Assembly: GCA_026706345.1 (NCBI GenBank)
Contig: JAPOYX010000237.1
Location: 13,175 to 77,174 of the forward strand
Origin: Gemmatimonadota bacterium
GTDB taxonomy: Bacteria; JAAXHH01
Direction of reading: 5' to 3'
Length of the DNA: 64,000 bases
Every line of letters begins with the position of its first letter. The first letter of the stretch is position 1. Below are positions 11,690 through 40,405 of the stretch, one piece after another. The position numbers and the translations under genes are program-made. The notes below the pieces were generated by a model. That model saw only the letters and a list, made by a program, of their open reading frames with translations, was not told the origin of the DNA and searched no databases.

Positions 11690-12532
11690 ATGCGAGACAC
11701 CATACGGATCGCCGGCGCGCAGATGGACTTGAAACTCGCCGAGGCCGAGCAGAACCTGACCAAGGTATTCGACGCCATGCAGACCGCCTCCCGGGAAGGC
11801 GCGGACCTGGTCGTGTTTCCGGAGTGCGCGTTGACCGGCTACTGTTTTTACGACCTGGACGAAGCCCGGGCGTGCGCACAACCCGTTCCCGGCCCTTTCA
11901 CGGAACGCCTCGAACGCCAGTGCCGGGAACTCGACATCCATGTCATCATCGGCCTGCTGGAGGCCGATGGGTCAAGTATATATAATTCGGCGGCCTTCAT
12001 CGCCCCCAACGGACTGATCGGGCACTACCGCAAGATCCACCTCCCCTATCTCGGCATCGACCGTTTCCTGTCCCCCGGCGACCGCCCCTTTCGCGTGTAC
12101 GACTCCGAGGTCGGCCAGATCGGGTTGAACATCTGTTACGACGCGGCGTTTCCCGAGAGCTCCCGGGTGATGATGCTCCATGACGCGGAGCTGATCGCCC
12201 TGCCCACCAACTGGCCGGTCGGCGCCGACTGCAACACGGAATTCGTCATAAACACCCGCGCCTTCGAGAACCGCGTCAACTATATCGCCGTGAACCGCGT
12301 CGGCCGGGAAAGGGGAACCAATTTCATCGGCCAGAGCAAAATCGTCGATTTCACCGGACGAACCCTGGCGGAAGGCGACCGGTCCCGGGAGGAAATCATC
12401 TATGCCGACGTGGACCTCGCGGGCGCCCGGGAGAAGCACATCGTAAACGTGCCCAGGGCCTATGAACTCGACCGCCTGGAAGACCGCCGTGTGGAGTTCT
12501 ATGGTCCCATTGTCGAGGGAGAAAGTCCTTGA
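11690..12532 (+). CDS. carbon-nitrogen hydrolase family protein (nitrilase/amidase-like)
   Basis: 280 aa; catalytic E (VVFPE), K (RKIHL) and C (NICYD) triad context of the CN-hydrolase family. Confidence 0.85.
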   Translation: MRDTIRIAGAQMDLKLAEAEQNLTKVFDAMQTASREGADLVVFPECALTGYCFYDLDEARACAQPVPGPFTERLERQCRELDIHVIIGLLEADGSSIYNSAAFIAPNGLIGHYRKIHLPYLGIDRFLSPGDRPFRVYDSEVGQIGLNICYDAAFPESSRVMMLHDAELIALPTNWPVGADCNTEFVINTRAFENRVNYIAVNRVGRERGTNFIGQSKIVDFTGRTLAEGDRSREEIIYADVDLAGAREKHIVNVPRAYELDRLEDRRVEFYGPIVEGESP

Positions 12533-20967: not shown

Positions 20968-21555
20968 CTAGTCCAGCGCCGGGAAGTCTTCCTGGTCCCG
21001 CAGGGTGTAGGACAGGAGGGCCAGGTCGTGCAGGCTGCCCTCGATGTCGCGGACCTGGGCGGGCAGGATGGCCCGCTGCACGAAACCGACCAGTTGCAGC
21101 AGCAGGATGGCGCCCCGCTGGACGTCCACCATGCACTCGGCGTTGAGCTGCTCGATCGACCCCGTATGGAGCGCTACGGAGATCAATTCGTTGATCATTT
21201 CGACGGCCAGTCCCTGCCGCCGGAAATCGGGGTGTACGACGAGGCGGAGCTTGCCGATATGGCTCTTCCAGCCGCGGCGCTCGCGGTGCAGCGACACCTC
21301 GGCGACGATTTCGCCGTCCACGATGGCCACGATGGGAATGACGACGTCCCAGTCGATATTGCTGCACCATCCCTCGATGATGCTCTTATCCCGGATGTCG
21401 TCTTTCAGGAAGATCCGGTCCTTGCGCGGGATCGACTGAAAAAAGGCGTAAAGCGCTTCCACGTCGTCCGATTCGAGCGGGCGGATCGTAACCTTCGTGC
21501 CGTCCTTCAGCGTCTCCGTCTTCGGGTATTCCTGGGCCAGGATTTCTTCCAGCAT
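20968..21555 (-). CDS. GNAT family N-acetyltransferase
   Basis: 195 aa; acetyl-CoA binding motif LVVHPDFRRQGLAVEMI (R/Q-x-x-G-x-A). Confidence 0.8.
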   Translation of the reverse strand: MLEEILAQEYPKTETLKDGTKVTIRPLESDDVEALYAFFQSIPRKDRIFLKDDIRDKSIIEGWCSNIDWDVVIPIVAIVDGEIVAEVSLHRERRGWKSHIGKLRLVVHPDFRRQGLAVEMINELISVALHTGSIEQLNAECMVDVQRGAILLLQLVGFVQRAILPAQVRDIEGSLHDLALLSYTLRDQEDFPALD

Positions 21556-22028
21556 GGAGGACTCCCTTCTGCTTTCGTGCCCCTCGCAGTGCCGAAAACA
21601 GCCGGCGGGCAGGCGCTTGTCTTCGCGTTATATCCACTGTTCGTCAATCTGGAAGTTAGGTCGAAGGGAAAGTATTGTCAAGCGGGGTCTGGTACATCCC
21701 GAACGGTCTTGTACAGGTTCCAATCAACCCGTTCAATGAAACGGAAACGGCCTTCATTATTGTAAAATTGAAATACTACCTGCAATTTGTCACAACGATG
21801 CAATGGCACCTCGTTCGGACCTCTGTACCAGGCTGTTCTTTCCCCCAAAAACCGCTTGACACGATAGCGCCTCACCCGTAGCCTTACAGCAGATCAATGC
21901 CACGAACGGAATTACCATTGTTTCGGGCCGCAACACGTTGAGCAGGGCTGCCTGCGTTGCGTCCTTCATTCTTGTGCTGTCATACCGATTAGCAGGTATA
22001 CGGCCCGTGGCCGGGGAGGAGCCTATCC

Positions 22029-22376
22029 ATGAAGCTTACATTCACCGATCTCAACGATATGATTCGTGAGTTGAAGGAGAAGAGTGTCCAGTCGATTCGA
22101 GTGAATGAAGTGATTCGTGATGTGCAGGTGATGATACCGGATGATTATCCGATGCCGGTAAAAGCCTTTTCGGTCTACGTAACCGCCAACATCGATGGAG
22201 AATGGAACGAGGATCTCGTGGCTGAGTACGTGGAGCACGTCGGCTGTGTCGACGAGCTCGCCGGGGAGGAGGTCCTTTCGGACCTGCATCGGCGCACGGG
22301 GAACAAGGTGGAGATCCTGCGCGAACTGCTGGCGGGCGAGTTCCTGACGGTAGGTTCGGGTCGGTTCGAAGAATGA
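22029..22376 (+). CDS. hypothetical small acidic protein
   Basis: 115-aa ORF after a ~470-bp low-GC intergenic region. No recognisable motif. Codon usage is acceptable. Confidence 0.4.
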   Translation: MKLTFTDLNDMIRELKEKSVQSIRVNEVIRDVQVMIPDDYPMPVKAFSVYVTANIDGEWNEDLVAEYVEHVGCVDELAGEEVLSDLHRRTGNKVEILRELLAGEFLTVGSGRFEE

Positions 22377-22463: not shown

Positions 22464-23438
22464 GTGAGCACCGATTCCGTCGGCTTCGGCGTGATAGGGC
22501 TTGGTATGGGCGCCGTACGCGCCCGTTTCATTCATGAGACGGAAGGCGCAAGACTCGTGGCGGTCGCCGAACTCGACGAAGAACGGGGCCGGAAAGCCGC
22601 GGATGAATACGGGATCGACTGGTACCGGGACTACCGGCGCCTCCTCGACCGGGACGATATCGACGTCATCACCGTGATGACGCCCAGCGGCACCCATGCG
22701 GACTTTGCCATCGCGGCATCGGAGGCGGGCAAGCATGTCATCACCACCAAGCCCGTGGAGGTCAATCTGGAACGGGCGGACCGGATGATCGACGCCTGCC
22801 GCGAGGCGGGCGTGATCCTGGCCGTCGATTTCGAGGCGCGGTACATGGCCGACAACGTCCGCGTCAAGCAGGCCGTGGACGAAGGCCGCCTGGGCAGGAT
22901 GATCCTGGGCGAAGTGCGTCTGAAGTGGTTCCGGAACGACGCCTACTACGAAGGCTGGCACGGCACTTGGGCACTGGACGGCGGCGGATCGCTGATCAAC
23001 CAGTCCGTGCACCAGATAGATCTCCTGGTCTGGTTCATGGGTGCGCCGGAATCTGTCCAGGGCCAGATCGGGGTGTTCAACCACCACATCGAATCCGAAG
23101 ACCTCGGCATGGCCATGATCAAATTCGGGAGCGGTGCGGTGGGAACCATTCTCGGGACGACGACCTGCCCCGTCACCATCCCCGCCGGCGTGGAACTCCA
23201 CGGCACGGAAGGTCTGGTCATTACGGCCGGGAACAAGGTCGCTACCTGGCATATCCCGGAAGAATCGATCGATGACCCCTTCGAGTACGAGGGCCCCCGC
23301 AACGTGATCGAGGACATGGTCCGGCTGGTCCGCCACGGCGGAACTCCCCGCATAACGGGCGAGGAAGCCAAGAAGTCCCTCGCGCTGATCCTGGCCGTCT
23401 ACGAATCGTCGAAGACGGGAAAGTCCGTAACCCCGTAA
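22464..23438 (+). CDS. Gfo/Idh/MocA family oxidoreductase
   Basis: Starts at GTG (VSTDSVGFGVIGLGMGA... Rossmann) and has the EKP-like VITTKPVEVN motif. The upstream in-frame ATG at 22431 is the alternative start. Confidence 0.85.
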   Translation: MSTDSVGFGVIGLGMGAVRARFIHETEGARLVAVAELDEERGRKAADEYGIDWYRDYRRLLDRDDIDVITVMTPSGTHADFAIAASEAGKHVITTKPVEVNLERADRMIDACREAGVILAVDFEARYMADNVRVKQAVDEGRLGRMILGEVRLKWFRNDAYYEGWHGTWALDGGGSLINQSVHQIDLLVWFMGAPESVQGQIGVFNHHIESEDLGMAMIKFGSGAVGTILGTTTCPVTIPAGVELHGTEGLVITAGNKVATWHIPEESIDDPFEYEGPRNVIEDMVRLVRHGGTPRITGEEAKKSLALILAVYESSKTGKSVTP

Positions 23439-25725: not shown

Positions 25726-26568
25726 ATGACGACATCCCCGGAACGCGTTTCCGTCCACGGCGGCCACAGCGGACAGTTCTGCGGTCACGCGGAGGATCAG
25801 TTGGAGGACATCGTCCGAGCCTATATCGCCCACGGGTACGCCTGGGTGGGCATCACCGAGCACATGCCGCCGGAGAAGGATGAGCTGAGCTACCCCGATG
25901 AGCTGGACGCCGGCCTGAGCGCCGTCGATCAACAGGCCCGTTTTGCCGAGTACATGTCGACCTGCCGGCGGCTCCGGGACAAATACGCCTCGGAGATCCG
26001 GATCCTGGTGGCCTTCGAGGCGGAGGCGTACACGGGCTATGAAAGCTGGGTGCCCGCCGTGCGGAAGGAGTTCGAGCCCGATTACATCGTGGGCTCCTTG
26101 CACCAGATCAATGACGAGTTGTTCGATGGGTCGCCGGAGTGGTACCGGGCGGCGGCAGAAACAGCAGGAGGTGTGGACGAGTTGTACTGTGCCTACTTCG
26201 ACCGCCAGTACGAGGTGATCACGACGCTTTCACCCGAGGTGATCGGGCACTTCGACCTGGTCCGAATCTTCGATCCGGATTACAGGGCGCGCCTGGTCAA
26301 ACCCTTCGTGTGGAAACGAGTCGTGCGTAACCTGGAAGCGATCCGGGACCTGGGGTCGATCATGGACTTCAACCTGGCCGCGCTAAAAAAGGGCCAGCCA
26401 GAGCCCTATATTGCCCGCCCGGTGCTCGAGCAGGCCCGGAAGATGGGCATCGCCGTGGTGCCCGGGGACGACTCCCACGGCGTGGGCAACATCGACCAGT
26501 TCTGGGACGAGGGCGTGCGCATACTGCGGGCTGCGGGATTCGACTTGAAATGGAAATGCCCCGCGTGA
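25726..26568 (+). CDS. histidinol-phosphatase, PHP family (HisJ/HisK-like)
   Basis: 280 aa; the N-terminal VHGGHSGQFCGHA metal-binding His cluster and a later ...GHFD motif are typical of PHP histidinol phosphatases. Confidence 0.75.
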   Translation: MTTSPERVSVHGGHSGQFCGHAEDQLEDIVRAYIAHGYAWVGITEHMPPEKDELSYPDELDAGLSAVDQQARFAEYMSTCRRLRDKYASEIRILVAFEAEAYTGYESWVPAVRKEFEPDYIVGSLHQINDELFDGSPEWYRAAAETAGGVDELYCAYFDRQYEVITTLSPEVIGHFDLVRIFDPDYRARLVKPFVWKRVVRNLEAIRDLGSIMDFNLAALKKGQPEPYIARPVLEQARKMGIAVVPGDDSHGVGNIDQFWDEGVRILRAAGFDLKWKCPA

Positions 26569-26749
26569 AGTGGAACGACATCCCAAACGCTCACAGCCAG
26601 TTAAGGAATCTTCTACAAAACGGCTTTTTTACTCGAGAAATTCATAACAGCATCGACTAACGGTAATGTATCGATGCTAAGAAGAAGATGTTTCGGTTGA
26701 TGGATATGTAGACGGGGCCAGTCCGGGATTGGATGAGAGAGGTGTCTAA

Positions 26750-27013
26750 ATGAGTGACTTTGAAAACCCATCGTCGCCTTCTCCTGGCACACCGATCGTC
26801 CTTCAGAATGAATGGCTGATGACGCAGCTCATTGACATTAAGAAGGAAATGGGCGAGATACGTGCCGAAATCGAAAAATCAAGAACCGAAATCGAAAAAT
26901 CAAGAACCGAAGCGGCGGACAGGGAAAACAGAATACTGAAATGGGCAATTGCCCTGGTGCCTGTAACTGCCCTCGCGTTACTGAAAATCTGGGATCTCTT
27001 ACCAATAAACTGA
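26750..27013 (+). CDS. hypothetical small protein with internal 7-aa tandem repeat and C-terminal hydrophobic anchor (low-GC insert)
   Basis: 87-aa ORF in a ~470-bp region of clearly lower GC than its flanks. It contains a perfect 21-bp tandem repeat (gaaatcgaaaaatcaagaacc, twice), giving EIEKSRT-EIEKSRT, and a C-terminal hydrophobic stretch WAIALVPVTALALLKIW. Confidence 0.4.
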   Translation: MSDFENPSSPSPGTPIVLQNEWLMTQLIDIKKEMGEIRAEIEKSRTEIEKSRTEAADRENRILKWAIALVPVTALALLKIWDLLPIN

Positions 27014-27042
27014 AGGAAAACGAAGAACGCTCAATTCGGTAC

Positions 27043-28620
27043 CTAGTACATTCTGTCCCAGGGACCGACCGGCACCTCGATGAGTGTCGGAGTATCCGCC
27101 GAAACGGCTTCGCTTACGGCCGCTTCCAACTGTGATGCGTCCTCGGCCAGAACTCCCCTTGCGCCATAGGCTTCGGCCAGCTTGACGAAATCGGGGTTGT
27201 GGAGTTCGGTGCCGACGACGTGGCCGTCGAATTCCTCCATCTGGGCACGCCAGACGTTGCCGTAGGCGTTGTCGTTGAACACGACTGTCACCACGTTAAC
27301 GCCATACTTCACGGCCGTGGCGAGCTCCTGGAGGTTGTAGAGGATGCCTCCGTCGCCGGAGACCACGACGACCGCCCGGTCGGGCCGGCCGATCTTCAGG
27401 CCGATGCCCACGGGGAACACGCTGCCGAGGGTGCCGTGGTGCGAGGAAGTCTGGTATCCCCTCGGGGAATTGGAATGGTAGTAGTTCCGGCTGTAGTATC
27501 CCATCTGGTTCATCCCGCCCACGAAGATCCCGTCGTCCGGTATCGCCGCCCGCATGGCGTCCATGAAAGCGCCTTGCGGTTGGAGTTGCTCGCCGGACCC
27601 GAAGCGATGGGCATTGATCGCCTGGATATCTTCGGTGACGTTGGGCCTGGGATCCGTCCGGGCGGACACGCGATCGAACAGGACTTCGAGGCTCAGTGCG
27701 GCGTCACCGAGAATGCCGTGGGTATGGGCGCCATCCTGGCTGATCTGGGAGAGATCGTCGTCGATTCGTATTACCGTCTGGGATGCCAGACGGCTGCCCA
27801 GGTCGGTGGACGTACCCACCGCCAGGATCACGTCGCACGCATCCACTCGGTCCTTCAGCGGTTTGAATCGCGTCTCGCACATACCAAGCGAGAGGGGATG
27901 GCGGGCCGGAAGGATGCCCTTTCCGCTGCGGCTGCTGACGACCGGGCTGCCCAGATGTTCGGCGAGCTTGCGAACCAGCGGCGCACCTTCCGATGCCCCG
28001 ACACCAACCCAGATCAGCGGCCGTTTCGCCTGGACCAGTAGTTCCGCCGCGTGATCCAGATGGGCCTCGTCGCCCGCCGCGGGTGCATAGGATTCGGCGG
28101 CCAGCAGTTCAACCTCTTCCGCGGATCTGAATATATCGGGGCCTACCTCCAGGATGACGGGACGCTTCCGTGGGGTATTGAGCTGGCGAAACGCTTCACG
28201 CACCAGGCCAGGTATATCCGCCGGCGATTCGGCCCGGCCCGCCCATTTCGAAAAGGCGCCATATTCGCCCAGACTGTCGTGTTTCGGCTGGCCGGGCTCG
28301 TGCACTCCGTGGTGGTCTCCCGTGATTAGCAGCACGGGCGACGACTGTGCGAAGGCCGTAGCCAGTCCGGCCGTGGTGTTGAAGAAACCGGGGCCCTCCA
28401 CAGCCAGGCCGACCCCCGGCTTGCCGCTCACGCGGGCGTAGCCGTCGGCGATGTAGCTGATTGCCTGCTCGTTGCGGGTGGTGATGTAGCGCATGCCCTC
28501 CTGTTGGTAAATGCCGTCTATGGCTTCGTACTGACCCGCTCCCGGCAGGCCGAAGACGACGCGCACGCCGTTATTGTACAGGGACCGGCTCAGTGCTTCG
28601 CCGCCATTCATTCTGGGCAT
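27043..28620 (-). CDS. thiamine pyrophosphate-dependent enzyme (acetolactate synthase large subunit-like)
   Basis: 525 aa with N-terminal TPP-Pyr, central and C-terminal TPP-PP domains. GDGG...N motif (VVSGDGGILYNLQELATA...NDNAYG). Confidence 0.85.
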   Translation of the reverse strand: MPRMNGGEALSRSLYNNGVRVVFGLPGAGQYEAIDGIYQQEGMRYITTRNEQAISYIADGYARVSGKPGVGLAVEGPGFFNTTAGLATAFAQSSPVLLITGDHHGVHEPGQPKHDSLGEYGAFSKWAGRAESPADIPGLVREAFRQLNTPRKRPVILEVGPDIFRSAEEVELLAAESYAPAAGDEAHLDHAAELLVQAKRPLIWVGVGASEGAPLVRKLAEHLGSPVVSSRSGKGILPARHPLSLGMCETRFKPLKDRVDACDVILAVGTSTDLGSRLASQTVIRIDDDLSQISQDGAHTHGILGDAALSLEVLFDRVSARTDPRPNVTEDIQAINAHRFGSGEQLQPQGAFMDAMRAAIPDDGIFVGGMNQMGYYSRNYYHSNSPRGYQTSSHHGTLGSVFPVGIGLKIGRPDRAVVVVSGDGGILYNLQELATAVKYGVNVVTVVFNDNAYGNVWRAQMEEFDGHVVGTELHNPDFVKLAEAYGARGVLAEDASQLEAAVSEAVSADTPTLIEVPVGPWDRMY

Positions 28621-33037: not shown

Positions 33038-33100
33038 GCAAACCTCCAGAGTCGAGGGTGATCAGCTATTATTGAAAGCGTGTCATCGAAACGCATTCGG

Positions 33101-33154
33101 ATCGCCTGGTCCGCCTGGATCGCCTGGGTCGCCTGGATCGCCTGGGTTGTCTGG
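33101..33154. repeat. six tandem 9-bp units (RTCGCCTGG)
   Basis: atcgcctgg tccgcctgg atcgcctgg gtcgcctgg atcgcctgg gttgtctgg, lying between two co-directional minus-strand genes. It also creates a spurious plus-strand WIAW-repeat ORF. Confidence 0.5.
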
Positions 33155-33168
33155 GCCACCCGGGCCGC

Positions 33169-33918
33169 CTATATGCCCAGCAGCCGGGCCGCGTTCTCAC
33201 CCAGGGCCATGCGTTTCGCTTCGTCGGATATCCGGGCGGTGATGATCTTGCCGATCTGCGGCCTGGGATCCATCAGGGGCATGTCCGATCCGTACAGCAC
33301 GCGGTCAGCCCCGCCCTTTTCCACCAGTTCTTCGATTACGCCGGGCGTCCGGTACGTCGAGCAGGTCTCCAGGTAGACGTTCGGGTACTTCTGCGCGGCG
33401 GCGATGGCTTCGGCGCGAGCCTCCGGCACGTTGCCGCAGTGGGCGGAGACGAAATTCACCCGCGGGTAGGCGGGCGCAAGGTCTTCGAAGTAACGGGGCC
33501 GGCTGTTGATGAAGTGATCCGTGTGGAAAATGATGGCCAGTCCCCGGTCCTGGGCGAATTCGTAGATCGGATGCCAGGGTTCCTCGTTGAAGGGCCACGG
33601 AGTATAGGGCGGGTAGAGCTTGATGGCCGGGAACCCCAGTTTGTCGATCGCCCGTTCCAGTTCGGGCACCATGCGGTCGGGCATGGTCGGCGAGACATAG
33701 GCAAAACCCACGAAGCGGTCCGGGTTCCGGGCGACGAATTTCGCGGTCAGATCGTTGCCCGTGGTCCCGTCCGGGTGAAATATGTGGAAGAGGCACGCGA
33801 CATCGATACCGACGGCGTCCATGGCCCCCATCAGGAGTTCCGGGTCGTCCACCATGCCGTAACGTTCCCACCGGCCCACGTGACCGTGGTAGTCGATTAC
33901 CCTCGTACCGTCAATCAT
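33169..33918 (-). CDS. amidohydrolase-2 family (TIM-barrel metal-dependent hydrolase) protein
   Basis: Start at MIDGTRVIDYHGHVG (an HxH metal-binding start) with later HxxH and D motifs. The ORF in the track extends further upstream through an unlikely Arg/Pro-rich stretch. Confidence 0.75.
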   Translation of the reverse strand: MIDGTRVIDYHGHVGRWERYGMVDDPELLMGAMDAVGIDVACLFHIFHPDGTTGNDLTAKFVARNPDRFVGFAYVSPTMPDRMVPELERAIDKLGFPAIKLYPPYTPWPFNEEPWHPIYEFAQDRGLAIIFHTDHFINSRPRYFEDLAPAYPRVNFVSAHCGNVPEARAEAIAAAQKYPNVYLETCSTYRTPGVIEELVEKGGADRVLYGSDMPLMDPRPQIGKIITARISDEAKRMALGENAARLLGI

Positions 33919-34676
33919 GACCCCTCCGTGAGTCCGAGCAGCCGCTCGGCGTTTCCGGCACAGACCCGCGCGAGTTCCTCTTCGCTCATGCGCGTGTGGT
34001 GCAGGTAGAACAGGATCGGACCCATGGCGTATCGGGGATACCAGGAACCGTAGATGAACCGGTCCGCGCCGAACTGTTCGACGAGCGCCTCCACTTCGCC
34101 GATGGGTTCGTACCGGCTGAGTTCCAGCACGGCATGGGGACTCGCTTCCAGCAGGCCGCGAACGACCAGCGCGTGGGTATAGTGGGCCCCGACGAGCACC
34201 GCGTGCAGGTCGGGATAGGCCTTGAGTGTCGTGACCACGTGGTCCGCTTCCACGTCCATCAGCGGGATCCACAGCGGAATCCGGGCATCCGAGAGGTAGG
34301 ACAGCAGGTTGTCGTAACCCCACGGGAGAAAAGGAAGGCCGGCGGACTGGCAGTCGTGCAGGCGGACGGACATCACCCGCCCCCGGCTGTGCAGATCCGC
34401 GATCTGCCTGATGGAGATCTCCACGGGCGCGACGGTCCACTGAGGGATCAGCCTGCCTGCCGCGTCGAGCCAGTCCTCCAGATACACATTCCCGTCCGTG
34501 GGGCTGATCTGCTCACCCTGCGCATGGTAGATCAGGGCGCGCTGGACGCCGTGAAAACCCATTTCGTCGAGAAGCTGAGCGGGGCTTTGACAGGGCGATG
34601 GACCGGTATGGTGATTCCCCACGCATACATTCGCGTCGATGACGGGTACACGGGGCGAAAAAGACAGTGAGGGCAT
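33915..34676 (-). CDS. amidohydrolase-2 family protein (tandem paralog)
   Basis: 253 aa; VIDANVCVGNHH start. Its stop overlaps the next gene's ATG in an ATGA arrangement at 33915-33918. Confidence 0.75.
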   Translation of the reverse strand: MPSLSFSPRVPVIDANVCVGNHHTGPSPCQSPAQLLDEMGFHGVQRALIYHAQGEQISPTDGNVYLEDWLDAAGRLIPQWTVAPVEISIRQIADLHSRGRVMSVRLHDCQSAGLPFLPWGYDNLLSYLSDARIPLWIPLMDVEADHVVTTLKAYPDLHAVLVGAHYTHALVVRGLLEASPHAVLELSRYEPIGEVEALVEQFGADRFIYGSWYPRYAMGPILFYLHHTRMSEEELARVCAGNAERLLGLTEGS

Positions 34677-34780
34677 GTGGTGTCGGTCCCTTGGGAGGCT
34701 GGTTTCAGGATTCAGTAGCGTATCAGTTTGGCATTTACCATCCGGTGTTCGAACGAAGGCAATAGACTGATTCCAATCTA

Positions 34781-35878
34781 CTAAGGTTCTACGGTCACAT
34801 TGTTCCAGTTTGTTGGGAATGGTTGGTAATTTTCGTAAGGATATTCTGTATCTGACAATAAAGCCCGGGCACGAGGGGGTTCCCCATTCGTGTTGATCCT
34901 TGCAGTTGACGCCAAACTCTCGAGATGGTCGACTAAACGCCAGACTTCATCAACACGAACTCCAAATCCAATGTTTCCGGTTGGAACCCGTTCTGGCCGT
35001 CCAGTATTAACATCAAACACGAGCTTCTCTGTTCCGGAGTTATTCACAGCAATGATCCACCCTGAATGATCGAAAATGGGGCTTCCGCTGGTTCCCCCCG
35101 AAAGATCGAGATTGTGCTGTACGAAACTGGTGTTGAAAGGTGTCGGATTAATTCCTATTTGAAATGGTCGTAATGCACTAATCGTTCCGTCCTTGAAGGT
35201 GGCAATCGGAACAATCGAAAAAATATCAGCAATTTCGTCCGGAAATCCAAGCGTTGCTATGGGCTGTCCTACACGTAGGTTTGTTGCATGTTCCCGAGGC
35301 AGTAATCGAGGGACCAGTTCTGTCGATTCCACCACAATCACGGCAACATCTGGCGACAAGGCAGTTCCATCGTAGTTAGGATGTTCGAAGTATGTAGTCG
35401 GAAAGTATGTATCAGAACCTCCAATGCGTGTTCCTGACTTGGTGGCGAAAACCCGCCAGTTTGTTGTGGTCGGGGAGTTGATAAAATCGTTGATTCCTCT
35501 GATTACATGCGCGTTTGTCCAGATTGCGTCCGAATAGTGAGCACGGAATCCTGTGCCGATAACATAGTTGGAGCCATAAACCTGCAGTCCCAAAGCAAAG
35601 ATGTAGTCGTTAATAGGCACTTCATCGAGAACATCTGCCCAATTTAGCGGAGACCCGGACCCACCATCGCCAGTGGAACCTGCTGGCCCGGCTGGCCCGG
35701 CTGGCCCGGCTGGCCCTGGTTGACCATCTGATCCGGCTGGTCCCTGTGGTCCGGCTGGTCCGGCTGGCCCAGTTGACCCAGCTGGCCCGGCCGGACCCTT
35801 ACTACCTTCACATGCTACGACTACCGAGAACAAAAAGAATGACGTTAAAAACGACCTAATTATGGTAGAAACAGTCAC
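34781..35878 (-). CDS. secreted/lipoprotein collagen-like (Gly-X-Y)n repeat protein fused to a V8/glutamyl-endopeptidase-like (S1B) serine protease domain
   Basis: 365 aa. Signal peptide with a Cys lipobox (FLFSVVVAC); about 17 uninterrupted GPAGPAGSTGPAGPAGPQGPAGSDGQPGPAGPAGPAGPAGSTG collagen triplets. Protease catalytic motifs TNAHV (His), DVAVIVV (Asp) and GGTSGSPIF (Ser). The gene sits in a ~1.4-kb island of markedly lower GC. Confidence 0.75.
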   Translation of the reverse strand: MTVSTIIRSFLTSFFLFSVVVACEGSKGPAGPAGSTGPAGPAGPQGPAGSDGQPGPAGPAGPAGPAGSTGDGGSGSPLNWADVLDEVPINDYIFALGLQVYGSNYVIGTGFRAHYSDAIWTNAHVIRGINDFINSPTTTNWRVFATKSGTRIGGSDTYFPTTYFEHPNYDGTALSPDVAVIVVESTELVPRLLPREHATNLRVGQPIATLGFPDEIADIFSIVPIATFKDGTISALRPFQIGINPTPFNTSFVQHNLDLSGGTSGSPIFDHSGWIIAVNNSGTEKLVFDVNTGRPERVPTGNIGFGVRVDEVWRLVDHLESLASTARINTNGEPPRARALLSDTEYPYENYQPFPTNWNNVTVEP

Positions 35879-35977
35879 TGGTAGTTCCTTTCTTCGCTGA
35901 GACGTTACGGCTGCTTCTTTAAAGGTAAGAACAGTAATATCTGTTCTCTTTAACTACGGTGACTTACCCTATCCCTG

Positions 35978-35996
35978 CGTTGACATCATGTCAACG
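35978..35996. promoter_or_regulatory. 19-bp perfect palindrome CGTTGACATCATGTCAACG upstream of the collagen-like protease gene
   Basis: Perfect inverted repeat read directly, about 100 bp upstream of the minus-strand start at 35878. It contains TTGACA on both strands. Confidence 0.4.
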
Positions 35997-36133
35997 AAGT
36001 TTAAACTAAATAAACAATGTAGATTTCAATCTAATACACTACCCAGGATTCAACGGGTTTTCAGGTTGCCTCTTGTCGCTGAAAACTTGCAAGAAGATAC
36101 GTAAACGGATCTTTGTAGGTGCCTATGCAGGCG

Positions 36134-37036
36134 TCACGGCTGCTCCGCATCCATGCCCGGCCGGATGCCGATTTCCTGCCCGAGCTTCTCCCACAGATCG
36201 GGTGGAATGGTATCGGTGGCGGCCTCGTACGCATCGTGTACGTGCCGGATACTCGCCGGTCCGAACATGACTACGCTTTCAACCGGCGCCGCCAGGCAGA
36301 ACTGAATGGCGAGATGCCGGATGTTGACGCTGTTTTTGCGGCACCAGGTCCAGACCCTGTGCGCGCGCGGCTCGGAGCCGGGATGCATGCCCCGCTCCCG
36401 TTCCGGATCGGGCTCCAATCCCGTGAGGAGCCCCATGCCCTGCACGCTGGCGAGAATGATCCCGGTGCGTTGTTTCTTTGCCGCCGGAAAGATCGTGGCG
36501 GCGGCCGACTGGTTGATCAGCGTATAGTCCAGGAAGGTCAGGGACACATCGCTGATGCCTTCGTCAATCAGCCGGACGTGCCAGTCGTGTGACCGGGCGC
36601 CGAGCCCGATGTTCCTGACCACCCCCTGCGACTTCAGCTCGCGCAGCACGTCGAAAACCGCGCCTTCGCGTAACAACTCGTCCATGTCGGACGGATCGTG
36701 TACGAGTACGGAATCGAGGTAGTCCGTCTTCAGGGATCGCAGACTGCGGTCCAGGCTCCACCGGGCGCCCCCCCCGGTGAAGTCCTTCCTGCGTTCGGGA
36801 TGGGTGCCGATCTTGGCCTGCAGATAGTAGGAGGACCGGGGTACGCCGGACAGCGCCTCACCCCATTTTTCCTCGTGATGGCCCGGGTAAGTATCGAAGT
36901 AGTTAATACCCAGCGACAGGGCGGTCTGGATCGCTTCGACCGCCTCGGGGCTTTCGTGCAGAAAAGCGGCTCCCATGGCCAGGGCCGCCGGACGCATGCC
37001 GGTTCGCCCGAACGATCGGGCGGGTAGGTTGTTCAC
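36134..37036 (-). CDS. aldo/keto reductase family oxidoreductase
   Basis: 300 aa; GINYFDTYPGHHEEKWGEAL, LDSVLVHDP and GLGARSHD motifs of AKRs. Confidence 0.85.
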   Translation of the reverse strand: MNNLPARSFGRTGMRPAALAMGAAFLHESPEAVEAIQTALSLGINYFDTYPGHHEEKWGEALSGVPRSSYYLQAKIGTHPERRKDFTGGGARWSLDRSLRSLKTDYLDSVLVHDPSDMDELLREGAVFDVLRELKSQGVVRNIGLGARSHDWHVRLIDEGISDVSLTFLDYTLINQSAAATIFPAAKKQRTGIILASVQGMGLLTGLEPDPERERGMHPGSEPRAHRVWTWCRKNSVNIRHLAIQFCLAAPVESVVMFGPASIRHVHDAYEAATDTIPPDLWEKLGQEIGIRPGMDAEQP

Positions 37037-37048
37037 GTACGCTTTCGA

Positions 37049-38491
37049 TTACCGTCTGTCCGTATCAGGGGAATCATCGACTTCCTCTCCTGTATCGTCC
37101 TCCACGGCGGGTTCATCTTCGTCTTCGATATCGAAGTCCGTATCGTCGTCCTCCAGGTCGATATCATCGTCGTCCTCGGCTTCGTCGCCGTCGTCAACTG
37201 TTTGTGCCGACGCTGTCTCGTCCTCTTCTGCTTCTTCTTCGACTTCGTCAGCGTAGTCCACGTCTACTTCGGACGTTTCCTCTTCGAACGCAGCCTCCGC
37301 ATCCTCACCTTTTTCTACTTCCGTTTCGTCATCAGCGGCTGCCTCGGTGTCTCCTGCTCCGCCCTCCTCCCCATCCTCGGCGCTGGCTTCCTCCGCAACA
37401 TCGATTTCCTCTTCGGTTTCTTCTGCTTCGTCCGCTTCCTCGGCCTCCGTCGCTTCGATGTCCTCACCGTCTAATTCGTCGGCGACGGCGTCATCGTCAT
37501 CTCCCGATCCATCCGCATCCGCTGCTTCTTCCCCTTTATACTCTTCGGCCTCGACCTCTTCCTCACCATCATCGATCTCATCGACAGCCGCGTCCTCGAT
37601 CTCGTCTTCGGCTTCCACCGGTTCGGCGTCATCCCAGTCGACTTCCGCCACCACGGCTGCCGCGACGGCCTCTTCGACGCCATACTCCTCGTCCGCTTCC
37701 TCGGAATCCGCGTCCTCATCTGATTCCTGCGGCATCTCGACTTCACCCACTTCGACCGCGAACGTGACGTATTCGAACCAGCCTTCGCCCTGGTTGGCGA
37801 AACGATGCGCGACGCCCGGGAGCACATGGGCCGCGGATCCATCGGTGACCAGTTGCCGGTTTCCGTCAGCTTCCTCGATGGTACCATAGCCGCTGAGCAC
37901 GTAATGGACGAGTTCGATCCCGTCCAACTGCTGCCAGTCGGTGCCCTGCCGTCCCTGGACGGCATAGCGGGTCACACCGTGCACGCGCTGGAGCACGCCA
38001 CCTTCGCTGGCCGGGACTTCCTCCTCGCGCAGCAGCAGCGGCCAGGACACAGTGCCGCCTTCCAGCACCACGGGATGGACGTCGCGCCAGTCGCGGACCG
38101 CGGGGGTGCCCTCCCGGATCTCGTCCAGCGGGCAGCTGACGATGAGATGCTCCATCCATCCATCCCCGTCGTTGAACGCCTGGTGAGGCACGTTGACGGG
38201 CATGTAGACGGCCGTGCCGTCCCGGACGTCCACCTTGTCGTCCCCGATGGTCAGTTGGCCTCGCCCCCGAAGGATGAAATACAGCTGCTCGATGCTGTCG
38301 TGCTGGTGGTGGTCCGAATGCTGATGGCCCTGCAGCCCGTGCTTGACGAAGCTGTTGATCCCATGCAGCCGGTTCACTTCCGGCGGAGATGTTTCATCCT
38401 TGTCATGGGACTGGTACAGCGTCCATACCAGCGCGCTGATATGCCCCACGTAAGGTGCCTGGTCGCGCCAGTTTCGCACGCGGATACTCAT
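37049..38491 (-). CDS. bicupin domain protein with ~230-aa poly-acidic (Asp/Glu-rich) C-terminal tail
   Basis: 480 aa. Two cupin motifs (GTAVYMPVNVPHQAFNDGDGWMEHL and GSAAHVLPGVAHRFANQGEGWFEY) are followed by a continuous in-frame low-complexity D/E/A-rich tail to the stop codon. The antisense frame gives a spurious Pro/Arg-rich ORF. Confidence 0.7.
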   Translation of the reverse strand: MSIRVRNWRDQAPYVGHISALVWTLYQSHDKDETSPPEVNRLHGINSFVKHGLQGHQHSDHHQHDSIEQLYFILRGRGQLTIGDDKVDVRDGTAVYMPVNVPHQAFNDGDGWMEHLIVSCPLDEIREGTPAVRDWRDVHPVVLEGGTVSWPLLLREEEVPASEGGVLQRVHGVTRYAVQGRQGTDWQQLDGIELVHYVLSGYGTIEEADGNRQLVTDGSAAHVLPGVAHRFANQGEGWFEYVTFAVEVGEVEMPQESDEDADSEEADEEYGVEEAVAAAVVAEVDWDDAEPVEAEDEIEDAAVDEIDDGEEEVEAEEYKGEEAADADGSGDDDDAVADELDGEDIEATEAEEADEAEETEEEIDVAEEASAEDGEEGGAGDTEAAADDETEVEKGEDAEAAFEEETSEVDVDYADEVEEEAEEDETASAQTVDDGDEAEDDDDIDLEDDDTDFDIEDEDEPAVEDDTGEEVDDSPDTDRR

Positions 38492-39673: not shown

Positions 39674-40326
39674 GAGGGGTCGGACACGTCTTGCACCGCG
39701 ACGGCCAGCCCGTCGCGCCACGCGTCGAGCTGCGCGAGGCCGTAGCTTTCGTCACCGTGACAGTGCGTTGTCCCGGTAGCCGATGTTCCCCTGTCGTACA
39801 CGACGATGCAGGGGTCTGTTCCCCGGGTATCGGCCGCCTTGAACCCGGCCGGAGCGAGGGAGACGCGGCGGTCGTAGTCCACCCAGCCTTCCCGTTCCCA
39901 GCCTACGGACAGCCAGTGGACGACCCGGGTGCAGTCGTCCCGGAAAGGATTGACCAGGTCCGCCACAATATCGGTCGTGATCACCAGCGATGATCGGGAC
40001 TGGATGATATGATCCTTCAGAACCTGCGCCGGGGACGCGTCCTGGCTAAGGACGGCTACGGCGCCGGCCCGCATGCATCCCAGGACGGATTCCCACCAGG
40101 CAACGCATGCCGGAAGCAGGATGAATACCCGGTGGTCCGGACGCACGCCGTGACGGTACAGCACGTGGGCGACCTTCTCCGAACGGATCTTCAGGTCCAG
40201 GAAGGTCACGTCCGTCGCCACGCCGTCGGGCTTTTGCCATTGCAGGGCGACTTTGCCCGGGTCCTCCGCGCACCGATCGACGATATCCACCGCGAAATTG
40301 GAAACGGCTTCTGTCATGATATGCAA
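39670..40326 (-). CDS. AMP-dependent synthetase/ligase N-terminal fragment (truncated acyl-CoA synthetase; possible remnant)
   Basis: 218 aa resembling only the N-terminal third of an ANL enzyme, with a degenerate P-loop-like TSATGTTHCHG. The stop TGA overlaps the CoA-transferase ATG (ATGA at 39670-39673). Confidence 0.5.
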   Translation of the reverse strand: MHIMTEAVSNFAVDIVDRCAEDPGKVALQWQKPDGVATDVTFLDLKIRSEKVAHVLYRHGVRPDHRVFILLPACVAWWESVLGCMRAGAVAVLSQDASPAQVLKDHIIQSRSSLVITTDIVADLVNPFRDDCTRVVHWLSVGWEREGWVDYDRRVSLAPAGFKAADTRGTDPCIVVYDRGTSATGTTHCHGDESYGLAQLDAWRDGLAVAVQDVSDPS

Positions 40327-40405
40327 TATTCCGTCTTCACGCGCGCCGGTCGACGATATCCACCGCGAAATTGGAAACGGCTTCCGTCATGATATGCACA
40401 ATCCT
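40275..40405. repeat. tandem direct duplication (~56 bp unit, 2 copies) of the 5' end of the AMP-ligase fragment, including its start codons
   Basis: cgacgatatccaccgcgaaattggaaacggcttc[t/c]gtcatgatatgca occurs at about 40275-40330 and again at 40350-40405. Confidence 0.6.

Follow-up and report, generated by a model that had tools for sequence, protein, structure and literature searches.

A low-GC segment at 34715..36043 of the 64,000-nt stretch of DNA analysed here (the window) is probably a non-autonomous, IS1-type cassette that delivered a lipid-anchored, collagen-stalked, HtrA-like protease belonging to a large uncharacterised family. The cassette measures 1329 bp, holds one passenger gene with a promoter-like region and lacks a transposase. 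It would have inserted into the spacer that separates an aldo/keto reductase gene from an amidohydrolase gene, duplicating 8–9 bp of target.

Insertion site and cassette ends

The sequence-only reading had described a low-GC island of roughly 45% GC between flanks of about 65%. The composition shift is real, but these figures were slightly too strong: GC content is 48.5% at 34677..36133 versus 62.8±2.0% (63%) in equal-sized windows elsewhere (z=-7.3, the window minimum). The tetranucleotide distance of the segment, the other measure that the reading had proposed, is 0.58 versus 0.24±0.03 elsewhere (maximum 0.35). GC3 is 43% for the ORF at 34781..35878 and 76–84% in six neighbouring genes. The ORF and both junctions are present in two independent assemblies with 99.98% and 100% identity (L084, L085), so we are not dealing with an assembly artefact.

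NCBI labels the host, a sponge-associated bacterium with high GC, as Gemmatimonadota; its close relatives are labelled Latescibacterota. Four close relatives (L080, L082, L083 and L087; aldo/keto reductase 85–94% identical) keep the gene order, yet their flanking genes are adjacent and no protease gene is present. The low-GC segment is thus an insertion. The target spacer between the aldo/keto reductase and amidohydrolase genes is 105–112 bp. The nearest homologue, P0002, lies at another locus in a relative. The site is laid out as follows.

33915..34676, minus strand: Amidohydro_2 gene, downstream flank; host DNA, 63.8% GC
34706..34714, no strand: target-site duplication, copy 1 (CAGGATTCA); exact 9-bp direct repeat of 36044-36052
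34715..34738, plus strand: terminal inverted repeat, cassette 3' end (GTAGCGTATCAGTTTGGCATTTAC); matches the other end and an IS1-family terminal sequence
36019..36043, minus strand: terminal inverted repeat, cassette 5' end (GGTAGTGTATTAGATTGAAATCTAC), with a GGnnnTG-type terminus; inverted match in the sequence
36044..36052, no strand: target-site duplication, copy 2 (CAGGATTCA); exact direct repeat exactly at the junction
36134..37036, minus strand: aldo/keto reductase gene, upstream flank; host DNA, 63.8% GC

An IS1-derived element is recognised by a target duplication and an uninterrupted target in relatives. Here CAGGATTCA occurs twice, four relatives have empty sites, and the same sequence is single-copy at the uninterrupted site in L080, L082 and L083. 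The duplication measures 8 bp instead of 9 if A34714 is assigned to the element, and a target duplication of 8–9 bp fits IS1 (ISfinder tables). Mobile-element scars had been proposed as a check on the segment, and they are found at its ends in the form of the target duplication (CAGGATTCA) and the terminal inverted repeats. Empty sites in four relatives and transposon-type ends together bear out the horizontal acquisition that the sequence-only reading had suggested.

The terminal inverted repeats are imperfect and 24–25 bp long. Scored at the ends fixed by the empty sites, their ungapped inverted match covers 18/24 positions (75%), a score reached in 0/2000 shuffles of the 40-nt ends; the window's terminal repeats were not significant in an unanchored inverted-repeat search (450x350 nt). 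The termini read GGTAGTG... and (A)GTAGCG..., a GGnnnTG-type end, a trait reported for elements of the IS1 and IS6 families (PMC6807381). Three unrelated metagenome contigs carry a degenerate form of the terminal pattern, each with G-GTAG[TC]GTATCAGTTTGAAAT[CT]TAC. One of them, L090, contains an IS1-family transposase fragment 1.4 kb inside the terminal repeat, and this fragment shares 60–65% identity with annotated transposases of the IS1 family (E=4e-41). In Acidiphilium, an annotated IS1-family element has the end GGTAATGTCTCAGTTTGAAATTTCT 9 nt past its transposase stop codon, identical to the cassette end at 20/25 positions.

No transposase was found in the cassette, in the 64-kb window or at the other loci examined. 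The element thus looks like a non-autonomous IS1-type mobile insertion cassette, and we infer its mobility as a historical event. The 66 nt 3' of the stop codon hold the terminal repeat only. A search for a second copy of the terminal repeat found none in the window and none among 86 loci. L086 is a diverged and truncated second copy of the cassette in another high-GC genome, 77% identical from the terminal repeat to about aa 249, and adjoins tRNA-Ser. In mobile insertion cassettes no transposase is present, and the passenger gene is bounded by terminal inverted repeats and by a duplicated target (PMC5444012); examples are the MIC231 type and the Aeromonas qnrS2 cassette. Those cassettes carry a resistance gene, whereas the passenger here is a symbiont-type protease, and the only further copy found (L086) is decayed. 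We also considered an integron gene cassette, which is marked by an attC site at its 3' end and a GTTRRRY core at its boundaries, and rejected it: inspection of the junctions showed no GTTRRRY, and the gene has its own 165-nt upstream region. Rfam gave nothing credible in the cassette.

Could the segment instead be what is left of a phage or genomic island, or a chimera produced in assembly? We consider this very improbable. Its collagen repeats do match many phage tail-fibre PHROGs, and the L086 copy adjoins not only the tRNA-Ser gene but also a GmrSD gene of foreign composition. However, the PHROG matches are confined to the collagen repeat, viral contigs gave no match to the family alignment or to the terminal-repeat pattern, and a blastn search with the cassette matched plasmid and phage sequences in the collagen repeat only; the link to phage fibres drawn from the sequence alone is therefore not supported. 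A tRNA-linked island or prophage was rejected because the window contains no tRNA, the insert amounts to one gene and the searches turned up no viral relatives. The exact boundaries with target duplication and inverted repeats argue against a phage or island origin as well, and the junctions, identical in two independent assemblies, argue against a chimera. The same empty sites would result if each of the four relatives had lost the segment by deletion between 9-bp repeats, but an insertion is the more parsimonious account, and a deletion does not explain the composition.

The cassette gene and its upstream region

The gene and its product have the following features.

34781..35878, minus strand: the only gene of the cassette, for a lipoprotein of 365 aa made up of collagen-like stalk, S1 protease domain and conserved tail
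35885..35891, minus strand: Shine-Dalgarno-like AAAGGAA, 6 nt before GTG; read from the sequence, conserved in L086
35810..35878, minus strand: signal peptide with lipobox VVAC, by sequence pattern; Cys23 codon 35810-35812
35654..35806, minus strand: (Gly-X-Y)17 collagen-like region, aa 25-75; Pro at 10/17 X positions
34910..35653, minus strand: S1 (PA-clan) protease domain, aa 76-323, by triad motifs and Pfam
35507-35509, 35348-35350 and 35087-35089, minus strand: catalytic codons of His124, Asp177 and Ser264
34784..34909, minus strand: C-terminal extension, aa 324-365, with terminal tail YPYENYQPFPTNWNNVTVEP, by family conservation

The 365-aa ORF starts with GTG preceded by AAAGGAA. Its signal peptide has R8, a hydrophobic core and V-V-A-C23, which conforms to the [LVI][ASTVI][GAS]-Cys lipobox, and the AlphaFold model places a helix at residues 3-22. 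From G25 to G73 every third residue is a glycine, giving 17 unbroken triplets; the DNA shows a tandem 9-bp period at 35682-35791. A Gly-X-Y run of this kind defines collagen-like proteins; BclA is the best PDB sequence match (E=3.5e-8), and Pfam Collagen scores 27.7 bits, only just over its 27.2 cut-off. In the protease domain, the triad motifs TNAHV (His124), SPDVAVIVV (Asp177) and GGTSGSPIF (Ser264) stand in the His-Asp-Ser order within a double beta-barrel that marks the S1 family (PA clan), and Pfam reports Trypsin_2 (E=1.1e-12). Thus, the lipoprotein signal, the uninterrupted collagen-type repeat and the S1 serine protease with an intact triad, all proposed from the sequence alone, hold up. 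In the C-terminal tail, Pro355 is found in 93/93 and Trp358 in 91/93 family members, and residues 358-362 form a beta-strand in the AlphaFold model. This monomer model has a pLDDT of 83 overall, >90 over most of the protease core and 55–72 in the collagen region.

Public annotation names members of this protein family 'serine protease' only, and for the present gene the annotated start leaves out the signal peptide and the collagen part. Neither the 365-aa protein nor the 279-aa version of NCBI had an exact match in a contig index.

Upstream of the gene lie three further elements.

35928..35947, minus strand: another inverted repeat, AGAACAG-ATATTA-CTGTTCT, within the presumed 5' leader
35966..35994, minus strand: promoter-like element, TTGACA 35989-35994, 17-nt spacer, TAGGGT 35966-35971; aligned with L086
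35978..35996, no strand: 19-bp palindrome CGTTGACATCATGTCAACG = CGTTGACAT-C-ATGTCAACG; exact, 9-nt arms, one central base

The 19-bp perfect palindrome noticed in the sequence-only reading is indeed exact. It had been proposed as the site of a dimeric regulator, and an operator at which a dimeric repressor controls the cassette gene is conceivable but doubtful. The palindrome spans the -35 box and spacer of the conserved promoter-like element: arm 35988-35996 contains the -35 box and arm 35978-35986 lies over the spacer. In L086, the closest relative, the element reads TTGACA-N17-TACAGT, and L086 has a palindrome built on the same TTGACA (GTCAACA-AC-TGTTGAC) plus a further TGTCAACGCA. Such a palindrome occurs in only ~1% of simulated 165-nt upstream regions. 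Over the whole window, however, 3 palindromes (arms >=9, spacer <=8) were observed versus 3.9±2.3 expected in Markov-1 simulations, so for the window as a whole the palindrome does not exceed chance. L086 does not conserve the right arm and has the partner arm on the opposite side, neither the palindrome nor a TTGACAT motif occurs upstream of 24 other homologues, and the cassette has no regulator gene. The -10 box is weak, below consensus in a scan of the minus strand; sigma-70 rules may not hold in this phylum. The predicted start of transcription is near 35959.

Protease type, family and likely role

The protease fold is closest to HtrA/Deg (S1C) and not specifically to V8 (S1B). The V8/S1B-type assignment of the sequence-only reading was not upheld, the S1B structures (V8/Esp/Spl) ranking below S1C for this protein. 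The domain is similar to that of HtrA/DegP/DegS/Deg, but Pfam finds no PDZ domain and the HtrA models score far below cut-off (TIGR02037, 24.2 vs 416 bits; NF041521, 22 vs 450), while the HtrA matches by PDB sequence reach E~0.04 only. The protein also differs from HtrA in its N-terminal lipid anchor, its collagen stalk and its C-terminal tail, YxPFPxxW, which is specific to the family. PADLOC returned weak generic protease matches only.

The stalk invites comparison with the bacterial collagen-like proteins Scl1/Scl2, BclA, Lcl and Bucl8, which likewise have unbroken Gly-X-Y without hydroxyproline and an adjoining globular domain. That domain serves as an adhesin, an exosporium component or an efflux component in those proteins and is a protease here; the anchor is a lipobox here versus LPXTG in bacterial collagen-like proteins. 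The NCBIfam Scl and Lcl models score 20–28 bits versus cut-offs of 325–500. Bucl8 is described as a collagen-like protein forming an outer-membrane component of an efflux pump (PMC7682875). We detected 531 homologues of the cassette protein, mostly with collagen and Trypsin_2. Animals have collagen-stalked enzyme assemblies as well: in MBL/ficolin-MASP, C1q-C1r/C1s and ColQ-acetylcholinesterase, catalytic domains are displayed or held in position by a triple helix of collagen. The likeness is a functional analogy only: there is no homology past the generic repeat and the S1 fold, and stalk and enzyme are separate polypeptides in animals but a single chain with a lipid anchor here.

The family is multiplied within genomes (3–5 paralogues per genome) and spread patchily over several phyla, and many of its members are associated with marine animals. 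Its MAGs belong to Gemmatimonadota, Latescibacterota, Spirochaetia and Chloroflexota, many of them from sponges and a coral. At E<=1e-30 it forms ~200 clusters (50% identity), a count that includes some collagen-only proteins. In an alignment of 93 sequences, 86 have at least 8 Gly-X-Y triplets, 92 have the lipobox Cys and 85 a lipobox-like pattern, so the architecture, which had been called uncommon, is that of a populous family. The stalk varies from 0 to 31 triplets. In members from Spirochaetia and Chloroflexota MAGs, and in 6/93 of the aligned members (e.g. P0108), the collagen run is swapped for a short or Pro-rich linker while lipobox, protease and tail are still there; this fits a spacer role for the collagen stalk. 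Full-text searches of the literature found no description of a collagen and protease family or of its architecture, and a protein-based scan of JGI metagenomes found no close relatives. An unanchored inverted-repeat search around 40 homologues gave no significant pairs; the same search also missed the window's own repeats. The lack of inverted repeats around these 40 members suggests that most copies lie outside recognisable cassettes.

What does the protein do? It is improbable that a secreted glutamyl endopeptidase of the V8/S1B type, mounted on a collagen stalk, was acquired here as a virulence-like factor of the surface: besides the ranking of the structures, nothing supports Glu specificity, and 75 residues (lipid anchor and collagen) precede the domain, a long N-terminal extension compared with V8, although later processing is possible. 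Rather unlikely, if less so, is a periplasmic HtrA-like protease for housekeeping or quality control, whose anchor and stalk only set its height and which has no link to a host or niche. The nearest fold is that of the HtrA family, lipoproteins of diderms mostly face the periplasm, and part of the family stems from MAGs of seawater or sediment (SI074, SI072, CSSed, LaPlata). Yet for a housekeeping gene, absence from the site in four close relatives, carriage on a mobile cassette and 43% GC3 in an 80% GC3 genome would all be unexpected. The number of paralogues per genome, the patchy spread across phyla, the variable stalk length and the missing PDZ domain also speak against this role.

Most likely, the protein acts as a membrane-tethered endopeptidase, presumably trimeric and extracytoplasmic, on envelope, matrix or host proteins. 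Its signal peptide would be cleaved and Cys23 lipidated, as the lipobox pattern predicts. With its 17 Gly-X-Y triplets the stalk could wind into a collagen-type triple helix roughly 15 nm long, which would trimerise the protein and keep the catalytic domains off the membrane. HtrA/Deg proteases work as trimers. The S1 domain, with its HtrA/Deg-like fold and the conserved tail in place of PDZ domains, is expected to be proteolytically active.

Significance for symbiont genomes

Lipobox, bacterial collagen repeat, S1 protease and IS1-type ends are each known already, and it is their combination that is significant. The analysis defines a sizeable family and provides a base-exact case in which a one-gene, transposon-type cassette brings an extracytoplasmic enzyme into a symbiont chromosome. 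The cassette is a concrete mechanism for a lateral transfer that has so far been inferred statistically in such communities. One large study of sponge MAGs reported no collagenases (PMC8163846). The family occurs above all in phyla that typify the microbiomes of sponges and corals, and it could bear on how symbionts handle a collagen-rich host matrix. As a bolder and rather speculative idea, the proteins may form an undescribed class of symbiont-specific trimeric proteases in which a collagen helix replaces the PDZ/oligomerisation apparatus of HtrA and may also, as a collagen mimic, dock the enzyme in the collagen-rich matrix of a sponge or coral, with the genes exchanged among Gemmatimonadota, Latescibacterota, Spirochaetota and Chloroflexota, partly on IS1-derived single-gene cassettes. 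If this is true, the cassette gene would represent a mobile 'host-matrix interaction' module.

Insertion site and composition of the cassette

The GC content of the intergenic space 34677..36133 is 48.5%, versus 62.8±2.0% in equal-sized windows elsewhere (z=-7.3), and is the minimum across the 64 kb. The GC3 of its single ORF is 43% versus 76-84% in six neighbour genes, and the tetranucleotide distance of the ORF is 0.58 versus 0.24±0.03. The low-GC island proposed by the sequence-only reading is thus confirmed. The ORF and both junctions recur in two independent assemblies (ROBB21-1_SAMN13943208 scaffold_647 and Logan SRR10996932; 99.98% and 100% identity, with two amino-acid differences in one of them), so the ORF is neither disrupted nor an assembly artefact.

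Features of the cassette and its surroundings
34706-34714 and 36044-36052: 9-bp direct repeat CAGGATTCA, exactly where similarity to relatives breaks
34781..35878, minus strand: cassette gene, 365 aa, GTG start, AAAGGAA ahead of the start
35978..35996: exact 19-bp palindrome, 9-nt arms and one central base
36134..37036: aldo/keto reductase gene, upstream flank, many close homologues
62046-63987: ankyrin-repeat genes at the window end

We compared the locus with four relatives whose reductase is 85-94% identical (JAJEHX010000005.1, OZ241838.1, a TARA scaffold and a relative of CBDAUD01). Gene order matches the window in all four: M14 peptidase, nucleoside hydrolase, SDR, AMP-binding, CoA-transferase, cupin, reductase, two amidohydrolases, GDSL lipase and GFO/IDH/MocA oxidoreductase. 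In each, an amidohydrolase directly follows the reductase, and the spacer between them measures 105-112 bp wherever neither gene call is truncated. BLAST similarity to the window ends at ~36046 and restarts at ~34710-34713, and the uninterrupted sites carry a single copy of CAGGATTCA. Just inside the direct repeats, the cassette ends are mutual inverted copies (GGTAGTGTATTAGATTGAAATCTAC and GTAGCGTATCAGTTTGGCATTTAC) with 18 of 24 positions matching ungapped, a score that 2000 shuffles of the 40-nt ends never reached. This significance holds when the match is anchored at the independently defined ends; in an unanchored inverted-repeat search (450x350 nt) the cassette ends were not significant. 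The low-GC segment was inserted, and its transposon-type ends are exact: the empty sites in four relatives, the direct repeat and the inverted ends carry the earlier suggestion of horizontal acquisition to base-pair resolution.

Other irregularities were noted in the window. Two more low-GC dips, at 26400-27200 (~45%) and 21400-22200 (~51%), may be other small foreign insertions; the former holds an ORF (26750..27013, 87 aa) with a perfect 21-bp tandem repeat (EIEKSRT x2) and a hydrophobic C-terminus. Between the second amidohydrolase and GDSL lipase genes, a 9-bp tandem repeat GGATCGCCT runs for ~8 copies (33099-33170), in a spacer of 131 bp versus 56-73 bp in L080 and L083, two relatives with an uninterrupted target site. 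On the plus strand this repeat can incidentally be read as Gly-X-Y (ORF 33072..33242), but it is intergenic and too short. The bicupin gene (37049-38491, minus strand) encodes a C-terminal tail of ~250 aa that is nearly all Asp, Glu and Ala, so that both GC and AT skew are strong (the former to -0.41); its orthologues in relatives differ in length (480, 522, 564 and 618 aa). Secondary BLAST matches revealed a ~59-nt direct repeat upstream of the AMP-binding gene (40267-40325 and 40340-40398, 73 nt apart, ~95% identical).

IS1-type ends and other copies

A degenerate pattern built from both cassette ends recurs in three unrelated JGI metagenome contigs (GC 53, 56 and 44%), and all matches read G-GTAG[TC]GTATCAGTTTGAAAT[CT]TAC; roughly 0.2 chance matches are expected in a few 10^11 bases, the collection size being our own estimate. 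On L090, a metagenome contig with the same ends, a transposase fragment lies 1.4 kb inside the terminal repeat, past two small ORFs. It scores 24.0 bits against Pfam DDE_Tnp_IS1 (cut-off 24.1) and is 60-65% identical (E=4e-41) to plasmid genes annotated 'IS1 family transposase'. On an Acidiphilium multivorum plasmid, an inverted GGTAATGTCTCAGTTTGAAATTTCT occurs 9 nt past the stop of that gene and matches 20 of 25 consensus positions; a Mesorhizobium copy reads GGTAGTGGGTCAGTTTGAAATTCCA. IS1 duplications are 8-9 bp long in the ISfinder tables. GGnnnTG termini are common to IS6/IS26 and IS1 elements (Harmer and Hall, PMC6807381). A second such contig, L089, carries at 719-773 a 39-bp perfect-arm palindromic mini-element (GGTAGTGGTCAAGTT-TGAATTTTA-AACTTGACCACTACC) with the 8-bp direct repeat TAGACGCG on both sides; it resembles a fusion of two IS1-type termini together with a target duplication. 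No transposase was found in the cassette, the 64-kb window or the other loci. Because it has IS1-type ends and no transposase, the segment is best described as a non-autonomous IS1-type mobile insertion cassette (for the concept, see PMC5444012).

The IS1-family element of L090 (155-2050) has ORFs of 98 and 227 aa, neither with a Pfam match, between transposase and terminal repeat, and seems to be related to the parent element of the cassette, with passengers of its own. Past its terminal repeat lies a palindrome with 12-bp arms (GTTCTGTTCAAT-C-ATTGAACAGAAC); GAACAG/CTGTTC half-sites are common to this palindrome and a second inverted repeat in the window (35928-35947).

The closest DNA relative of the cassette is a diverged copy at L086 (3693-4780), which encodes P0030. 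Identity is 77% over a stretch that begins 34 nt ahead of the start codon and runs to about residue 249; there the copy breaks off, and P0030 consequently lacks the catalytic serine. Further upstream, the alignment reaches back to sequence resembling the terminal repeat. This copy lies 57 nt from tRNA-Ser(TGA) and beside a GmrSD gene (GmrSD_C, type IV restriction), with GC contents of 61.6% in the flanks, 49.6% in the cassette gene, 36% in its upstream region and 48.5% in the GmrSD_C gene. This site, in a different high-GC genome, resembles a hot-spot for integration. Among full-length homologues the nearest is P0002 (68% identity over the protease part), encoded in the CBDAUD01 relative directly upstream of an orthologous ankyrin gene (L001 10001-12187). 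The ankyrin-repeat genes beside it are syntenic with the window at 48-63 kb, and the corresponding window position holds a different ankyrin gene and no protease gene. Among 5.8 billion proteins searched, none was more than 68% identical except the truncated P0030 (78% over 64% of the query). In the clade nearest the window protein, GC3 is ~0.5 and genome GC 55-61%; the window copy is the most extreme.

A family of predicted lipoprotein proteases

The cassette gene encodes the parts first described for its product. The window protein has a lipobox (VVAC closes the signal peptide; Cys23 is the lipobox cysteine), an unbroken collagen repeat (Gly at every third residue over G25-G73, 17 triplets, Pro at X in 10) and an intact triad in an S1 fold: His124 (TNAHV), Asp177 (SPDVAVIVV) and Ser264 (GGTSGSPIF). 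Pfam matches are Trypsin_2 (E=1.1e-12), Trypsin (1.3e-6) and, narrowly, Collagen (27.7 bits versus a cut-off of 27.2). The NCBI entry MCY3773708.1 (P0001; 'MAG: serine protease [Gemmatimonadetes bacterium]', 279 aa) begins at residue 87, its first residue given as M, so the signal peptide, lipobox and entire collagen region are missing from the public record. The full 365 aa are called in two other assemblies.

The protease had been taken for a V8-like S1B enzyme. No solved structure is close by sequence (best match HtrA2, E~0.04). In Foldseek searches with the AlphaFold model (mean pLDDT 83, pTM 0.76, core mostly >90), HtrA-family chains fill ~45 of the 50 top places, and sub-threshold NCBIfam protease matches are mainly HtrA models. 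By these matches the domain is a generic PA-clan S1 protease, nearest S1C, and we place it in neither S1B nor S1C. Unlike HtrA (S1C), the window protein has no PDZ domain and falls below all curated family cut-offs. The V8 mechanism needs a free N-terminus at the domain start, whereas here 75 residues and a conserved, structured linker precede the domain. An S1B identity was not borne out, and we found no support for Glu/Asp specificity of the window protease. Asp258, six residues before Ser264, is conserved in 89 of 93 aligned members; this spacing is that of Asp189 in trypsin, an observation that carries no specificity prediction.

The architecture, thought uncommon, proved widespread: a search with the protease part returned 531 homologues, mostly of 340-370 aa with Pfam Collagen and Trypsin_2, and in a profile search across 1.84 billion representatives, 200 clusters reached E<=1e-30, a few collagen-only giants being among these. 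An affinity with phage was not supported either. We aligned 93 members to count conservation. Asp177, Ser264 and Pro355 are invariant, and Cys23 (92/93), Trp358 (91/93) and His124 (89/93) nearly so; conserved blocks are LNWADV, IWTNAHV, SPD, PIATFKDGTISALRP, QHNLDLSGGTSGS and a terminal YxPFPxNWNGxTxxP. Of the 93, 86 carry at least 8 triplets (median 16, maximum 31). The run is absent from six (e.g. P0108, which has a Pro-rich linker instead); members in Spirochaetia and Chloroflexota MAGs also lack it but keep lipobox, protease and tail. The constant core is thus a lipoprotein protease with its tail, and the collagen part is probably a variable spacer and oligomerisation module. Four homologues of 470-511 aa (P0029, P0049, P0054 and P0078) have an additional ~120-aa domain between lipobox and collagen run.

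The GTDB species representatives contain 78 loci. All of them lie in MAGs, which are labelled Gemmatimonadota/Longimicrobiales, Latescibacterota, Spirochaetia and Chloroflexota/Dehalococcoidia, with up to 3-5 paralogues per genome. A few loci come from seawater or sediment. From the names, we take SB0665 to be a sponge sample and Plut_88884 a Porites coral sample. The isolate prefixes APA, COS4, IRC1 and RHO1, borne by many, presumably denote the sponge species sampled by Robbins et al. 2021 (PMC8163846).

Expression and possible role

The palindrome upstream of the gene is exact, as first reported, and had been read as a dimeric regulator site. The window holds three palindromes of that class versus 3.9±2.3 simulated, so this one is unremarkable for the window, although in simulations such a palindrome turns up in only ~1% of 165-nt upstream regions. 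(The other two lie at 22664-22682 and 11947-11969, CGTCATCACCGTGATGACG and CATCGGCCTGCTGGAGGCCGATG.) In gene orientation, its left arm contains a conserved -35 hexamer and its right arm, not kept in L086, covers the spacer. The promoter-like element TTGACA-N17-TAGGGT has a conserved counterpart in L086, TTGACA-N17-TACAGT, whose TTGACA belongs to a different palindrome (GTCAACA-AC-TGTTGAC) with the partner arm on the opposite side. The upstream regions of 24 other homologues hold no comparable motif. An operator function is possible, but the evidence better supports reading the palindrome as a marker of the cassette promoter.

Transcription would start from this element within the cassette; read-through from the reductase gene, which has the same orientation, could also occur. 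The protein would then be exported and lipidated at Cys23. Collagen helices rise ~0.29 nm per residue, and the 51 residues may form a homotrimeric triple helix of ~15 nm that gathers three HtrA-like domains and keeps them off the membrane. The conserved C-terminal tail (residues 358-362 modelled as a strand) may substitute for PDZ domains in a regulatory or packing role. The mobility, the multiplied paralogues and the skew towards host-associated bacteria suggest an extracytoplasmic target specific to the niche, for example envelope, matrix or host proteins. Quality control confined to the periplasm is a serious rival.

Full-text literature searches returned no description of this architecture or family. 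The individual parts are familiar; the combination and its mode of delivery are new variants. Taken together, the locus is a textbook-clean single-gene IS1-type cassette that does not overturn current understanding, and its product belongs to a well-defined family that is open to testing and may play a part in animal-microbe symbiosis.
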